Assembly: GCA_016840465.1 (NCBI GenBank)
Contig: JAEOSH010000006.1
Span: 46,771-78,770 of the forward strand
Origin: Candidatus Baldrarchaeum yapensis
Lineage (GTDB): Archaea; Asgardarchaeota; Baldrarchaeia; Baldrarchaeales; Baldrarchaeaceae
Reading direction: 5' to 3'
Length of the DNA stretch: 32,000 bases
A program made the position numbers and the translations under genes. Shown one piece after another: positions 1-5,625 of this stretch. A model generated the notes under the pieces. That model saw nothing but the letters and a program-made list of their open reading frames with translations. It had not been told where the DNA came from and searched no databases. Each line of letters starts with the position of its first letter. Position 1 is the stretch's first letter.

Positions 1-91
1 ACCCTGTTAGAATGTGAAATATGGGCGGAAAAGGAGAGCGGCAAGAGGGTCATTTGAGGGCGACGCGGAAGTGCTACTGGAAAAGCCTTGA
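1..91 (+). pseudogene. 3' end of a gene entering from the left edge, possibly a hot-dog-fold (MaoC/thioesterase-like) C-terminus, with an apparent +1 frameshift
   Basis: Frame 1 reads TLLECEIWAEKESGKRVI* (stop 55-57). Frame 2 continues EGDAEVLLEKP* (stop 89-91). The joined sequence resembles a typical hot-dog-fold final strand. Only about 30 codons are visible. Confidence 0.25.
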
Positions 92-187: not shown

Positions 188-1474
188 ATGAGAATTACTC
201 GACAGCGAAGGTGTTCCATACTCAAAGGTAGTGGTACCATGGGGGCCGGAGATTTTAGAAGTGTGGAAGAACTCCTAAAGGCACATGGCAAACCTCCTAG
301 AGAAGTATATCTCGATTGTGAGAATTCTCCTTGGGTCCCTCCCGAAGTCATTGACGCGATGCTTCCGTACTTTAATACCATCGGATATGGAAACCCCTTG
401 ATAACACATAAGGCCGGTTGGGAAGCTTATGAGGCGTATAGAAGGGCCCTCATACAAATAGCTCGCCCGATAAATGCCGATCCCCAGCAATTCATCATCA
501 CCCACAGCGGGACTGAAGCAAACAATCTCGCAATCAAGGGGTATGTTCTCGCAAACAAAGATAAGGGAAGGAAAATAGTTGTATCGGAAATAGAGCATTT
601 AAGCGTAATTTTCACAGCGGAGTACCTTAAAAACTGCGGATTTGAGGTCGTTAAGGTTCCGGTCGACGCAGAGGGTTTCATAGATCTCGAAAAACTGGCG
701 GATATTGTCGATAGAGAAACCATTCTCGTGAGTATTATGTTGGTCAATCACGAAATAGGGACAATAGAACCCCTCAGGGAGGCCGTGGAAGTAGTAAAGG
801 ACAAAAACCCTGATGTGGTCTTCCACACGGATGCTGCGGATGCGTACGGCAAAATAAAATTTGACGTGGAGAAACTTGGAGTTGATATGGTTTCACTAAG
901 CGCCCGCAAAATTTATGGGCCAAGAGGAGTAGGTGCGCTTTATGTAAGAGAGGGAATAAGGTTGGAAAAACTGATACATGGCCAAATAAGTATAGAGGAA
1001 TTATGGCCGGGGGTCGAGAACGTACCGCTGGTTATGGGTTTCGCAAAAGCAAGTGAACTTATATTCAAAGATTTTGACAGGAACGTCAGCCACATGAGAA
1101 AACTAAGGGACATGCTCATAGACGGCATATTATCATCAATCCCGTACACTTTCCTTAATGGGCCAAAGGGGGATAGAAGAGCGCCGGATAACGTTAACAT
1201 AAGCTTTCTCTACTGCGAAGGCGAGGCCATGGTGATAGAGTTAAGCACGCACGGAGTTTATGTATCCAGTGGAAGCGCGTGTGCAAGCCGAATGTTGGAA
1301 CCAAGTCACGTTCTCCTCGCCATAGGGCGAAAATTTGAAGAAGTGCACGGAAGTCTGCTGATGAAGGTGACGCCATATCACACAGTTGAAGATATAAAGT
1401 ACGTATTAGAAGTATTGCCGAAGGCGGTAGAAAGAATAAGGAGTATAAGTGCACTTAAGCCCGAAGGTGATTGA
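188..1474 (+). CDS. iscS: IscS/NifS-like class V PLP protein (cysteine desulfurase family, atypical active site); likely start ATG 239
   Basis: Motifs YLD, GNP, GTEANNLAIKG, EHLSV, HTDA, SARKIYGPRGVGALY (PLP Lys) and SSGSACAS (persulfide Cys). Directly followed by iscU. Confidence 0.9.
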   Translation: MRITRQRRCSILKGSGTMGAGDFRSVEELLKAHGKPPREVYLDCENSPWVPPEVIDAMLPYFNTIGYGNPLITHKAGWEAYEAYRRALIQIARPINADPQQFIITHSGTEANNLAIKGYVLANKDKGRKIVVSEIEHLSVIFTAEYLKNCGFEVVKVPVDAEGFIDLEKLADIVDRETILVSIMLVNHEIGTIEPLREAVEVVKDKNPDVVFHTDAADAYGKIKFDVEKLGVDMVSLSARKIYGPRGVGALYVREGIRLEKLIHGQISIEELWPGVENVPLVMGFAKASELIFKDFDRNVSHMRKLRDMLIDGILSSIPYTFLNGPKGDRRAPDNVNISFLYCEGEAMVIELSTHGVYVSSGSACASRMLEPSHVLLAIGRKFEEVHGSLLMKVTPYHTVEDIKYVLEVLPKAVERIRSISALKPEGD

Positions 1475-1990
1475 ATGCCAACGAAAAGGATCCCACTTCC
1501 CTATAGCCCAAAGGTGTTAGAATACTTCAGAAACCCCAAAAATTTGGGCCCGCTCGAAGATGCAAGCGTTGTTGCGATGGCAGGTAGTCCCGCGTGCGGC
1601 GATATGATCGCAATATACCTCAAAGTCAACGACGAAAGCGAAATCATAGAAAAAGCAACATTCGAAAGCTACGGGTGTGCAGCCAACATAGCGGCAGCGA
1701 GTGTCATGACAGAAATGATAACGGGCAAGACGCTAAAGGAAGCTTGGAATCTTACATGGAAGGACTTGTCCGATGCATTGGGCGGCCTCCCCTCTATAAA
1801 GTTTCACTGTGGAATACTCGCGGTTGGGGCTTTACGCAGAGCAATAAGAGAGTACTATAGGAAAAAGGGTAAAAATCCCGACTGGTTGCCTGAGGATCTT
1901 ACAAAAGAAGAAAAAATGGCGCTCGAGGAGGAAGAACTGGTAAAACGGTTGCAAAAACGATACGAGAGAATGCTGAAACGGGGTGAATGA
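1475..1990 (+). CDS. iscU: Fe-S cluster scaffold IscU/NifU-N with a charged C-terminal extension
   Basis: YSPKVLEYFRNPKN, ACGD, YGCA and LPSIKFHC supply the three Cys plus Asp/His. GGTGA SD lies in the end of iscS. Confidence 0.93.
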   Translation: MPTKRIPLPYSPKVLEYFRNPKNLGPLEDASVVAMAGSPACGDMIAIYLKVNDESEIIEKATFESYGCAANIAAASVMTEMITGKTLKEAWNLTWKDLSDALGGLPSIKFHCGILAVGALRRAIREYYRKKGKNPDWLPEDLTKEEKMALEEEELVKRLQKRYERMLKRGE

Positions 1991-1993
1991 CAA

Positions 1994-2266
1994 GTGGGCC
2001 TAGTGGACGAGTTTGTGAAGAATTACACGAAGAGTTGTACTGCGGAAACGACGTATACCGTTACGCTCAAGTGGGACAAGATTGATGACGCCTATCGGAG
2101 AATCTTAAGTAAGGGTAAGGTTATTTCAAAGATGCCCATGTTAACCCGCGTCGTCTACGAAGGTGTGGAGATAACGCTTTTCAGAACGGGAAAAATGGTT
2201 ATTAAAAAACTTGGTGATCGCGATATAAGGGAATTTTTGGAGAATCTTCTCTCGGATAGCGGCTGA
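1994..2266 (+). CDS. Small hypothetical protein in the isc operon
   Basis: 3-nt gap after iscU with a GGTGA SD. The EITLFRTGKMVIK pattern resembles the C-terminal domain of MoeB/ThiF proteins (by eye). Confidence 0.7.
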   Translation: MGLVDEFVKNYTKSCTAETTYTVTLKWDKIDDAYRRILSKGKVISKMPMLTRVVYEGVEITLFRTGKMVIKKLGDRDIREFLENLLSDSG

Positions 2267-2309: not shown

Positions 2310-3140
2310 GTGGGGAGAAGTATGTGTGACTGGTGCATTAAGCACGGAGAAGGTAAACTATGGTATTTAAACGCGAAAAACTACGCCAGAAAAATGTATC
2401 GAGAGAGAAAAAGAGCGGAACTTACCGGAAAGGTGGAATTTGATCCGCTCAAATTAATAATGGAGCAGCTTGAGAACGCACTTAAGTATTACGGCACCGA
2501 ACGCTGGCCAACCATAAAAAAGCAAATAGAAAACTTCTGCCACGCGGTGCACTTTGGCCAGGTGGTGCCACTTGAAGACCTAAAAGCGATCCTTGACATC
2601 GCATGGCCTATTGCGAGAATAACATGCGCATGTAGACGCATGGTTTATGGACTTGAAGATGAAGAGAACTTCTACTGTTTCGGGATAGGCGTCGGGATGT
2701 ATAAGTGGGAGCGCTGGCCCGAAAATTACAGAGGTGGTGTGGAGTTCATATCCCCCGATGAGGCCAAGAGGCTTGTGGAGGAGTTCAACAAAAAGGGACT
2801 TGTGCACACAATTTGGGTTTTCGGAACTCCCTACATAGGAGGAATATGCAACTGTGAATACCCCGTTTGTCTCGGAATAAGAAACCGTGTGGACTACGGG
2901 ATCAAAATATTACTAAAGGGACATTACGTAGCGGTTCTGGATCCGGAAAAGTGCAACGGTTGTAGAAGATGTGTAGCGAGATGCCAATTCGGGGCGATAA
3001 AATACTCCCCCAGCATGAATAAAGTTGTCATAGATATGAAGAAGTGCTTCGGATGCGGGTTGTGTGTCACCGCCTGTCCTCGTGGAGCAATCAGACTTGA
3101 AAGGAGAGAGAAGTTCCCAGCAATAGCGAATGACTGGTAG
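2310..3140 (+). CDS. 4Fe-4S dicluster-domain protein of unknown function; likely start ATG 2322
   Basis: N-terminal CDWCIKHG, CACR and ICNC motifs, plus a C-terminal CNGCRRCVARC / CFGCGLCVTACP ferredoxin pair. Confidence 0.85.
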   Translation: MGRSMCDWCIKHGEGKLWYLNAKNYARKMYRERKRAELTGKVEFDPLKLIMEQLENALKYYGTERWPTIKKQIENFCHAVHFGQVVPLEDLKAILDIAWPIARITCACRRMVYGLEDEENFYCFGIGVGMYKWERWPENYRGGVEFISPDEAKRLVEEFNKKGLVHTIWVFGTPYIGGICNCEYPVCLGIRNRVDYGIKILLKGHYVAVLDPEKCNGCRRCVARCQFGAIKYSPSMNKVVIDMKKCFGCGLCVTACPRGAIRLERREKFPAIANDW

Positions 3141-3380
3141 GTGAACCGGATGCCGATAAGGATAGAAGTGGACACCGAGAAATGTGGAAACGCAATGGAG
3201 TGCAAGATTTGTCTCAGAGTTTGTCCTCAGAGAGTTTTTATGATGTTCCCAAGCACCTATGAGAAGTACAAGTTATCAGAGAGGTTTTATATACGCCCGG
3301 TCCATGCAGTTGCCTGCGTGCTTTGTAATTTATGTGTGGAAAAATGTCCTAAGGGCGCAATAAGGATAATAACGCAGTAG
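3141..3380 (+). CDS. Ferredoxin family protein; likely start ATG 3150
   Basis: CGNAMECKICLRVCP and CVLCNLCVEKCP motifs. AGGTGA SD before the ATG. Confidence 0.88.
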   Translation: MNRMPIRIEVDTEKCGNAMECKICLRVCPQRVFMMFPSTYEKYKLSERFYIRPVHAVACVLCNLCVEKCPKGAIRIITQ

Positions 3381-3962
3381 GTGAGACATATGACCACAGA
3401 GGGGGAATTATACGACTATTATCTGCCGGATGAGTTATTAGCCACAATAAGGGAAAAATTCGACGTGAAAACTCTGGTGAGGGAACTTGTGGAAAAATGC
3501 AGAGGAAAAGACCCAACGGAGATCGAAAAACTGGCATCTCAAATTTTAGGCGAAAGGTTGAAGGAATCCATTAAGGCGGCGATAGAGGTGGGGGAAAAGG
3601 TACTGGACAGGACCGCAGAGTGGATTTACAAGGTGGCCCAGAAGACCGGAATAAGGTTTCCGAGTGTACCTCAAAGATTCATAGAAGCCCATTTTATGGC
3701 AGCAAGAAAAAATGATAAATATGAAATACGCGCCAGTACACCATCTTTTATGGAATTTGAAGTCAAAAGATGTGAAATTTTTGATTTGCTGAGAAAATCT
3801 CTTGGCGATGATGCAATGAGGTCAATGCCTTGTCGCTATGGATGCATATTAGCATCAAAAACGTTATTCGAAGCGCTAAAATTTGATGTAGAGATACTAA
3901 GACATTCTGAGATGTCCAAGGACGGAAAATGCAGAATAGAAATTAAGTTGAAGAGTGGTTAA
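3381..3962 (+). CDS. Hypothetical protein with an ATC-hydrolase/V4R-like Cys pattern in the C-terminal half; likely start ATG 3390
   Basis: FEVKRC...MPCRYGC...GKCRIEI pattern. AGGTGA SD. Same operon as the ferredoxins. Confidence 0.7.
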   Translation: MRHMTTEGELYDYYLPDELLATIREKFDVKTLVRELVEKCRGKDPTEIEKLASQILGERLKESIKAAIEVGEKVLDRTAEWIYKVAQKTGIRFPSVPQRFIEAHFMAARKNDKYEIRASTPSFMEFEVKRCEIFDLLRKSLGDDAMRSMPCRYGCILASKTLFEALKFDVEILRHSEMSKDGKCRIEIKLKSG

Positions 3963-3984: not shown

Positions 3985-5625
3985 TTACTCCAACTTTAGT
4001 GTCTTGTACTGCTCTATAAGTTTCATTACATCTATTTTTCCGGTTCCGGTTTTTGGAAGTGACTCAACGAATATGAATCTATCAGGTATCCACCACTTCG
4101 CGACTTTGCCCTCTTCCGACAGTTTCAGCATGAAATTCCTCATCTCATCCTCAGTTATCTTATCTTTATATTCGGGCTTCGGAACTATTACTGCAATAGG
4201 CCTTTCTCCCCATTTCTCGTGAGGTACGGGAATCACCGCTACCTCAGAAACCGCAGGATGTGTGCTTAGCAGGTCTTCTAATATCAATGGAGATATCCAT
4301 TCTCCTCCACTCTTTATCACGAACTTCAATCTTCCAACTATCTGTATGTATCCATCCTCGTCCCAGACACCAACGTCACCCGTATGCAGCCATCCGTCCT
4401 TCCATAACTCTCTCGTCTTTTCAGGGTCCTTATAATACTCGCGTGTGCACCATGGTGCCCGTACTACAATCTCTCCGACAGTCTTTCCATCTTTAGGTAC
4501 TTCTTCTCCCTTCTCATTCACAACCCTTACCTTTACTAATGGGAATGGAATTCCCGTCTTAAGTGTGACTTCAAATTTCTTATCCTCCGGCCATTCAAGC
4601 ATGTGTTCCTTATATCCGGCAATTGTGAGTGCTGGGCACGTTTCAGAGAGTCCGTATGCGGAAATTACCTTCATTCCCAGTTCTCTAGCCCGCTTGGCTA
4701 ATCCTCTTGGAAGGGCTGCACCTCCAATTATCATTTTCAGTCTTGAGAACACGTCTCTATATTCTTCGGCTTTTGGATGATAAACTAGCGCATGTAGGAT
4801 TGTTGGTACGCCATATGTATAGGTGACGCCTTCCTTTCGCATAAGCTCGAGTATTAAGTCCCATTCGTATCTACCAGGTAAAACGAACTTTACTCCCATA
4901 AAGGCCGCGGTGTATGGCATACCCCAAGAGTGTACATGGAAGAACGGTACAAGTGGCATTACTACATCTTGAGAAGTCAGATTAAATTCTCCGGGGAAGA
5001 GCGACGCAAGTCCAAGAGCCAACGAATGTAACGTTATTTGTCTGTGCGTGAAGATGACTCCCTTTGGAAGTCCCGTGGTTCCTGATGTGTAGAAGAGTGT
5101 AGCATCGGTGTTTTCATCCAAATCAGGGAATTCATAGTCAGGCGATGCTTCCTTAACAAGTGATTCATAATCATAAGCGGGTTCTAGCTTAGTTTCCGGA
5201 AACGTTCCAGTATCCGATGTAATTATAAATGCTTTCAGGCTCTTGGGAAGCATATCCTTTACTCTTTCGACTATTGGCAGGAATTCGTCCCTTATTACAA
5301 GAACATCATCCTCGGCATGCTTCATGGTATACAGGAGGTGTTCTGGGGGCAAACGCAGGTTTATGGTGTGGAGTATAGCGCCCATCATAGGAACCGCAAA
5401 GTACAACTCAAGGTACCTATGTGTGTCCCAGTCGAGTACTGCTACTTTCGTCCCTCTTTTAACCCCGATCTCCTCGAGTGCGTTTGCAAGTCTCTTTATT
5501 CTCTCGTAAAACTGGGACCAAGTATACCTAACAAGGTCTCTATATACAACCTCTTTATTTGGTGCCCGATTAATACCCCACTCGAGGAGGTTTTTTATTA
5601 TCAACTGGTAGTTGTACGCACTCAA
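3985..5625 (-). CDS. Medium/long-chain acyl-CoA ligase (AMP-forming, AlkK/FadK/DmdB-like)
   Basis: YTSGTTGLPKG AMP-binding loop, YGLSET, WLHTGD, IKSGGEWI and PKTGTGKID. Confidence 0.93.
   Translation of the reverse strand: MSAYNYQLIIKNLLEWGINRAPNKEVVYRDLVRYTWSQFYERIKRLANALEEIGVKRGTKVAVLDWDTHRYLELYFAVPMMGAILHTINLRLPPEHLLYTMKHAEDDVLVIRDEFLPIVERVKDMLPKSLKAFIITSDTGTFPETKLEPAYDYESLVKEASPDYEFPDLDENTDATLFYTSGTTGLPKGVIFTHRQITLHSLALGLASLFPGEFNLTSQDVVMPLVPFFHVHSWGMPYTAAFMGVKFVLPGRYEWDLILELMRKEGVTYTYGVPTILHALVYHPKAEEYRDVFSRLKMIIGGAALPRGLAKRARELGMKVISAYGLSETCPALTIAGYKEHMLEWPEDKKFEVTLKTGIPFPLVKVRVVNEKGEEVPKDGKTVGEIVVRAPWCTREYYKDPEKTRELWKDGWLHTGDVGVWDEDGYIQIVGRLKFVIKSGGEWISPLILEDLLSTHPAVSEVAVIPVPHEKWGERPIAVIVPKPEYKDKITEDEMRNFMLKLSEEGKVAKWWIPDRFIFVESLPKTGTGKIDVMKLIEQYKTLKLE

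Follow-up and report, generated by a model that had tools for sequence, protein, structure and literature searches.

In this study, we analyzed a 32,000-nucleotide stretch of the Asgard archaeon Candidatus Baldrarchaeum yapensis (assembly GCA_016840465.1, contig JAEOSH010000006.1, positions 46,771 to 78,770; hereafter the window), centering on the 411-aa product (P0001) of the gene at window positions 239-1474 of the forward strand, which we name IscS*. Our analyses placed IscS* in a large archaeal clade of non-canonical IscS proteins paired with IscU, a kind of pairing that is already known. Comparison across the homologues indicates that the substitutions in its substrate pocket are a signature of the clade and not decay, since the replacing residues are as invariant as those they replaced. 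The evidence tips slightly toward IscS* being a partner of IscU, as a persulfide relay or cluster ligand, and not a standard L-cysteine desulfurase.

Fold and substrate pocket of IscS*

The gene is translated without a stop through 411 codons; an alternative, longer open reading frame opens at position 188, and homologues start near the ATG at 239. The product has an IscS/NifS-type (type I class V) fold with a clade-specific rebuilt substrate pocket. The class V aminotransferase fold was recovered with Pfam (Aminotran_5, PF00266, E 1.2e-60), and the best NCBIfam matches were NifS, IscS and DndA, every one of them under its curated cut-off: 391 against 531 bits for NifS (TIGR03402), and 321 against 643 and 323 against 548 bits for the IscS models TIGR02006 and NF010611, respectively. 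The AlphaFold 2 (AF2) model, with a pLDDT of 91.4, matched IscS and NFS1 structures with TM-scores of 0.87-0.97 and a root-mean-square deviation of ∼1.5 Å. Among solved structures, IscS2 of Archaeoglobus fulgidus came closest both in sequence (E 4e-96) and in fold, which bears out an earlier note on this DNA that had named the Archaeoglobus protein as a precedent. The automatic annotation of all these clade proteins as "cysteine desulfurase" may be wrong.

Pocket residues were mapped by MAFFT alignment of P0001 to Escherichia coli K-12 IscS (from NC_000913.3), whose numbering is used below for family positions. Conservation was counted among 120 close homologues of P0001 (59-68% identity), and the wider IscS/NifS family was represented for comparison by 147 diverse sequences taken at 50% identity. 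In that wider set, 117 of the 147 representatives were canonical at all of H104, N155, Q183, K206, T243, C328 and R354, so that the pattern of P0001 is far from chance.

First, the N-terminal wall of the substrate pocket has been exchanged. E28-N29-S30 (320..328; all pocket features lie on the forward strand) correspond to S10-A11-T12 of E. coli, with E and N at positions 10 and 11 in all 120 homologues and S at position 12 in 116, whereas canonical family members carry A, N or S, then A, then T. The earlier note had described this change as ATT to ENS; the ENS is indeed present, and its place in the alignment is one residue ahead of the ATT given there. Second, residues around the cofactor pyridoxal 5'-phosphate (PLP) and the substrate carboxylate are replaced. 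In E. coli IscS, N155 is a pocket and carboxylate residue, and Q183 donates a hydrogen bond to PLP O3'. The former has become H171 (749..751, in VNHEIG; His in 114 of 120 homologues, as against Asn in 126 of the 147 wider-family representatives), and the latter D201 (839..841, in HTDAAD; Asp in 117 of 120). T243, a phosphate ligand contributed by the other subunit in E. coli IscS, is represented by V259 (1013..1015) within W-P-G-V-E-N. This position is V, I or L in every homologue (V in 109), next to a W240 kept in 118 and a P241 kept in 120. Third, L374-M375-K376 (1358..1366, in HGSLLMK) take the place of R354-F355-S356, so that an Arg is lost and a Lys gained two residues later. The combination of L354 and K356 was found in 120 of 120 homologues, and L374 and K376 both lie on a strand predicted at 372-376 in the AF2 model.

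Other parts of the site are kept. R223-K224 (905..910, in SARK) match H205-K206: the Schiff-base Lys is retained, invariably so among the 120 close homologues, and the Arg is peculiar to P0001, position 205 being R in only two homologues and otherwise Y or H. The mobile-loop C328 is represented by C348 (1280..1282, in SSGSAC), which is invariant in the 120 homologues; residues 348-351 are of low confidence in the AF2 model, as expected for a mobile loop. H120 (H104), D198 (D180), S221 (S203) and T92 (T76) are also retained in P0001. Position 104 is variable among the homologues, with Pro in 76 of 120 and 63% without the His, and where Pro occurs it covaries with Glu75 and Tyr205. The N-terminal extension is conserved in the clade as well, including an invariant L12 and H16.

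Set against a working type I desulfurase, P0001 thus possesses the Schiff-base Lys206 and the pyridine-nitrogen Asp180 (K224 and D198), together with the mobile-loop Cys and the PLP-stacking, acid-base His104 (C348 and H120). It is without Gln183 (D201) and without the carboxylate ligands Arg354 and Asn155 (L374 and H171), and the phosphate-ligand set of Thr76, Ser203, His205 and Thr243' is incomplete, T92 and S221 being kept and Arg205 and Val243 standing in the remaining positions. The alignment confirmed each of the substitutions N155 to H, Q183 to D, H205 to R, T243 to V and R354 to L that the earlier note had proposed, as well as the retention of the H104, D180, S203, K206 and C328 equivalents, and the homologue alignments showed that the substitutions co-occur across the whole clade. 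The description of the cysteine-binding residues as "lost" did not hold, for they have been replaced by an equally invariant set that includes K356. A total of 64 columns are invariant among the 120 homologues, the replaced sites included. The alternative residues being as invariant as the originals, the data point to replacement by a constrained set at a site under selection.

The clade and its module

With a word-indexed search, over 100 archaeal proteins were retrieved at 59-68% identity to P0001; they come from Bathyarchaeia, Desulfurococcaceae, Ignisphaera, Thermofilaceae, Nezhaarchaeales, Geothermarchaeota, Jordarchaeales and Asgardarchaeia, the last being the nearest named source. In an exhaustive HMMER search the clade collapsed to essentially one 50% cluster (P0123, 543 bits), and the next full-length proteins (at most 369 bits, 42-48% identity) were canonical. 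We built a tree of 95 sequences, with FastTree only, rooted on the SufS of this genome. The core family and an Asgard subtype termed ENG (49-54% identity) formed one clade with a support of 99, whose sisters were P0155 and a type from a genome that shares its order with the source genome (G002; E-R-T at the N-terminal wall and M354). The next branch out comprised three representatives with H155 and E183 yet with R or K at 354. The Lys-less, Archaeoglobus-like sequences (G006, G015, P0133, P0192) fell into a clade of their own, also with a support of 99 and apart from IscS*; the IscS* clade, a separate branch in which the Lys is kept, is therefore not of the Archaeoglobus type.

Apparent intermediates were observed at P0130, P0140 and P0179, some of which have H155 and E183 and keep R or K at 354, and the G002 type (L016:1477-2670) combines E-R-T with S183 and M354, without K356. 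Such combinations of residues suggest that the pocket was remodelled stepwise. In the ENG subclade (L036-L053, Asgard family f5; for example L036:1495-2706), 15 of the 19 members carry Arg in place of the Schiff-base Lys (SSNR, SSDR), and Ser or Ala occupies position 183. All 19 retain N11, H155, L354 and C328; V243 persists in 18, the exception having Ile, and E10 and K356 are each present in 17. It follows that what is common to the whole clade is the new pocket set plus the loop Cys, and that positions 104, 183, 205 and 206 make up the variable part.

Counting core, ENG and near relatives at E ≤ 1e-110, the clade was present in 99 of 401 sampled Thermoproteota genomes (about a quarter), nearly always as a single copy, and in 41 of 301 sampled Asgard genomes, where it is concentrated in a few families and missing from the two largest sampled.

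IscS* is encoded directly upstream of a canonical IscU (P0121, 171 aa; 1475..1990, +; PF01592, E 1.4e-39), whose ligands C-G-D, C and H-C are all as expected. The start codon of IscU abuts the stop codon of IscS*, so that the pair is translationally coupled, in keeping with the partnership that the earlier note had supposed, and P0121 was the sole NifU_N gene found in this genome. Among related loci, IscU adjoins IscS* in 64 of 66, the remaining two being cut by contig ends. These IscU proteins carry an acidic C-terminal tail of ∼38 aa (1874..1987, +; P-x-W-L-P-x-E-L-T-x-E-E-K-x-A-L-E-E-E-E-L), which was conserved in the 28 aligned IscU partners of IscS* and which the sister type (G002) does not have on its IscU. 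With an IscS-like and an IscU-like gene and no chaperone genes in the operon, the region 239-1990 corresponds to a minimal iron-sulfur cluster (ISC) locus of the MIS type, which is defined by such a pair in the absence of HscAB, IscA and IscX.

Three bases past IscU opens orf90 (P0122, 90 aa; 1994..2266, +), whose archaeal homologues are ∼85-90 aa long and have in common a TGK motif and a single invariant Cys (C15). No Pfam or NCBIfam family above threshold was found for orf90. Its confidently modelled structure (pLDDT 90) may be a TBP-like alpha/beta half-barrel, to which the following comparisons lend weak support. An orf90 homologue matched Pfam TBP weakly (E 0.11); PF00352 was present in 20% of the members of a neighbouring Atlas cluster; Foldseek pointed to the RNase H3 N-terminal domain (probability 0.99, TM-score 0.51), with nothing at E ≤ 0.001 in the PDB; and VIA-align to TBP 1mp9 gave a Z of 6.8, within the range common for chance arrangements. 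The orf90 family occurred in 35 of the 301 sampled Asgard genomes, 31 of which also have the IscS* clade. All 19 ENG loci have a homologue immediately before IscS*; in Bathyarchaeia it follows IscU or SufS, and Jordarchaeales show the operon IscS*-IscU-SufS-orf90. Its context and single Cys make orf90 a candidate sulfur carrier or cluster ligand. A complex prediction of IscS* and IscU with orf90 as the partner scored 0.01 against a mark of 0.32, which weighs neither way.

The cysteine desulfurase SufS is the commonest further neighbour of the module. By coordinate comparison, 46 of 80 Thermoproteota genomes have it no more than ∼2.2 kb away from IscS*, and it was adjacent in 19 of 23 Pro104-type loci and in 12 of 24 His104 core loci. 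Anywhere in the genome, SufS was found in 93 of 99 Thermoproteota with IscS* versus 204 of 302 without, counts that ignore kinship. No SufS was seen beside ENG IscS* in the ∼1.5 kb flank examined on each side. The present genome encodes a canonical SufS (TIGR01979, 553 bits against a cut-off of 475) on contig 63 among unrelated neighbours, and two SufS-like class V proteins under the cut-off. One IscS* and no canonical IscS were found, so that the check proposed in the earlier note for a second, canonical desulfurase was borne out for SufS and not for IscS. TusA (PF01206) and SufE (PF02657) had no match in this genome, which is 96% complete, and SufS is accordingly left here without a classical acceptor besides the IscS*-IscU module. 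The TusA/DsrE association that Lys-less IscS shows in other genomes is thus missing from this one. Type II desulfurases need a dedicated persulfide acceptor (PMC12442378). The genome also has one SmsC-SmsB pair, its only one, which adjoins a MoeB/UbaA-type E1 adenylyltransferase (L054:619-3373, contig 20 of G000); this proximity may link Fe-S assembly to the activation of sulfur-carrier proteins.

Three packed genes follow (2310..3962, +; gaps of 43, 0 and 0 nt; Fer4 families). They encode a 276-aa protein with a Cys-rich N-terminal domain and a C-terminal 2x[4Fe-4S] domain, a 79-aa ferredoxin, and a 193-aa protein without a Pfam or NCBIfam family above threshold. They may be co-transcribed with the module, and could be electron donors. 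Not being conserved beside the module in other loci, they are tied to it weakly, and the ferredoxin genes were set aside as part of it. Convergent to them lies a long-chain or 3-(methylthio)propionyl-type acyl-CoA ligase gene (3985-5625, -; NF004837, 614 bits, over the cut-off), an ordinary gene. Upstream, a gene for a MaoC-like hot-dog dehydratase (L012:928-1319, its end reaching window 1-57) is seemingly split into overlapping frames at 928-1149 and 1131-1319, which a frameshift, an error in sequencing or a short intron could explain.

In the literature searched, we found neither the clade with its signature nor orf90 or the tail of IscU described; the original MIS/SMS paper (Garcia et al., 2022) lay outside that search.

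Function of IscS*

If IscS* is a partner of IscU, as we marginally favor, it would serve as the IscU-docking subunit in a minimal ISC (MIS-type) module particular to this archaeal clade. The IscS fold, the PLP Lys (in this member) and the mobile-loop Cys are kept, with the L-cysteine/PLP pocket rebuilt into a strictly conserved site made of E28, N29, H171, D201, V259, L374 and K376. IscS* would hold IscU while Cys348 relays persulfide to the nascent cluster, ligates the cluster, or does both. Sulfur might be supplied by the canonical type II SufS, whose gene shares the operon of the module in most relatives and lies on a different contig in this genome, or by free sulfide in these anaerobes, and the acidic tail of IscU and the single-Cys orf90 would be clade-specific accessories. 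The residue pattern and its conservation, the phyletic distribution, the gene linkage and the fold are shown by the data; that desulfurase activity was lost, which way sulfur flows and which proteins touch one another are inferred in this scheme.

Several lines of evidence point this way. Q183, N155, T243 and R354 are all replaced, which supports a role without desulfurase activity. Moreover, the loss of His104 or of Lys206 is tolerated inside the clade while the rest of the signature is kept, which indicates that the signature is independent of PLP chemistry. The inactive A. fulgidus IscS, the closest structure, also has Leu354 and provides a precedent. Taken together, the clade-wide pattern, the losses of His104 and Lys206 and the co-encoded SufS make a partner of IscU the most likely reading. 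A role other than standard L-cysteine desulfuration, as put forward in the earlier note, is thus favored by the comparative data; for the other sulfur donor that it suggested, the most concrete candidate is the co-encoded SufS, which it had not foreseen.

Other observations weigh against this interpretation, and most of them lend support to an alternative in which IscS* is a PLP-dependent L-cysteine desulfurase. The cysteine carboxylate would be bound through K376 with H171 and N29, in place of R354 and N155, and IscS* would pass its own persulfide to IscU like canonical MisS or IscS. P0001 keeps K206, H104, D180, T76, S203 and the SSGSAC loop (K224, H120, D198, T92, S221 and C348), residues that by sequence would suffice for PLP binding and perhaps for catalysis, and the presence of K206 in every close homologue argues that PLP matters in the core clade. 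The exchange of L354 and K356 is perfectly coupled. K356 lies two residues past L354 on the same predicted strand, so Lys may have taken over from Arg; since E. coli IscS with R354K has full activity (PMC9978102) and K356 sits on the strand face of L374, the relocated charge might bind the cysteine carboxylate. SufS is unlinked to the module in this genome and in the ENG subclade, and its co-occurrence discriminates weakly, since 74% of the sampled Thermoproteota have SufS in any case and kinship between genomes makes the observations non-independent. Finally, the phylogeny comes from FastTree only.

We nevertheless consider a cysteine desulfurase unlikely. Q183E, like H104Q, abolishes the activity of E. 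coli IscS (PMC9978102), and the clade has Asp at position 183. The phosphate ligand T243 has given way to Val, His104 is missing from most of the homologues, and a subclade with Arg for the Schiff-base Lys retains the signature. In addition, a canonical SufS is co-encoded at over half of the loci, and every curated desulfurase model scored under its cut-off.

A wider version of the IscU-partner interpretation, which we advance tentatively and hold to be rather less probable than its core, would be a hitherto undescribed hybrid SUF/ISC pathway of IscS*, tailed IscU, orf90 and SufS, widespread in Thermoproteota and several Asgard lineages. SufS would make the persulfide, Cys15 of orf90 and/or Cys348 of IscS* would relay it, and the pocket (E28, N29, H171, D201, K376) would be a new site for persulfide, sulfide or iron and not for cysteine.

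It is likewise doubtful, to about the same degree as for the desulfurase, that IscS* is an active PLP enzyme with a new chemistry or substrate. Its acidic and imidazole pocket (E28, D201, H171) could accept a donor in which no alpha-carboxylate is free, for example a thiol amine, or a cysteine or persulfide attached to a protein or carrier. Alternatively, a metal ion might be bound next to Cys348. The new residues are invariant, as for a working site, and the pocket charge is altered by the departure of the carboxylate Arg and the arrival of two acidic groups; the clade-specific N-terminal extension with its invariant L12 and H16 and the co-occurring single-Cys protein fit as well. The sequence names no substrate, however, and across the clade the signature is conserved least at the PLP-site residues 104, 183, 205 and 206. 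That IscS* is a decaying, functionless desulfurase paralogue, as the replaced catalytic residues and the unreached curated models might be taken to imply, is exceedingly improbable given its intact frame, its strict synteny with IscU, its conservation in two phyla (59-68% identity, with the replaced sites among the invariant columns) and its single-copy presence in the sampled Thermoproteota and Asgard genomes counted above, and the conservation data contradict a pseudogene.

The IscS* clade addresses the question of how sulfur is acquired and delivered in archaea with minimal Fe-S machineries. PMC13066941 calls MIS the biogenesis system that has been studied least, and PMC8918507 leaves the part played by the inactive Archaeoglobus IscS unsettled. 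The clade offers a second, independent and far more widespread natural experiment, in which the pocket was rebuilt and not lost and in which the candidate partners are SufS, a tailed IscU and a one-Cys protein. Its function would show whether a non-enzymatic part in assembling clusters on IscU is conserved among IscS-type proteins, and how U-type scaffolds are supplied by type II desulfurases where archaea have no SufE and SufU.

Comparison with known systems

The IscS2-IscU system of A. fulgidus (PDB 4EB5, 4EB7, 4HVK; D199K variant 4R5F) is the nearest known counterpart, with 41-42% identity to IscS* and a TM-score of up to 0.97. Both proteins have an IscU neighbour, Leu in place of Arg354, a replaced Gln183 and the loop Cys. 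The A. fulgidus protein is inactive, and sulfide was proposed as its sulfur source (PMC8918507); in the crystal, its loop Cys is the fourth ligand of a [2Fe-2S] cluster on IscU (PMC13066941). In contrast to IscS*, which keeps the Lys (SARK), it is without the Schiff-base Lys (Asp199, SSND) and holds pyridoxamine phosphate. It has T-S-A, Asn155, Ala183 and Ser243, where IscS* has E-N-S, H155, D183, V243 and K356, and its chain aligned without the N-terminal extension of the IscS* clade.

Canonical type I desulfurases, including E. coli IscS, NifS, human NFS1 and Methanosarcina acetivorans IscS2 (MisS), resemble IscS* in fold, in belonging to a dimeric family and in having a U-type partner, and resemble P0001 in the PLP Lys, Asp180, His104 and the mobile Cys loop; archaeal MIS, like the IscS* operon, has no HscAB or IscA. 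IscS* differs from them in the replacement of Gln183, Asn155, Thr243 and Arg354 and in scoring under every equivalog cut-off, and its identity to the nearest canonical representatives is 42-48%, as against at least 58% within the clade. A likeness to the SufS-SufU (Bacillus type) and SufS-SufE systems is seen in the type II SufS next to a U-type protein in most relatives of IscS*. However, the U-type protein here has the features of IscU (Asp, His-Cys and LPSIK, similar to LPPVK) and not those of SufU, a third, IscS-like protein is always present, and in this genome no SufE was found and SufS is unlinked.

Degenerate IscS copies next to IscU have been noted elsewhere, such as IscS1 of M. acetivorans, for which a role like that of A. 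fulgidus IscS was proposed (PMC7585200), and Lys-less IscS lineages also occurred among the 50%-identity representatives (P0133, P0192, P0220, P0227, P0203). In those lineages the Lys was lost and no fixed alternative signature was acquired, whereas the core clade of IscS* has kept the Lys together with an invariant set of replacements.

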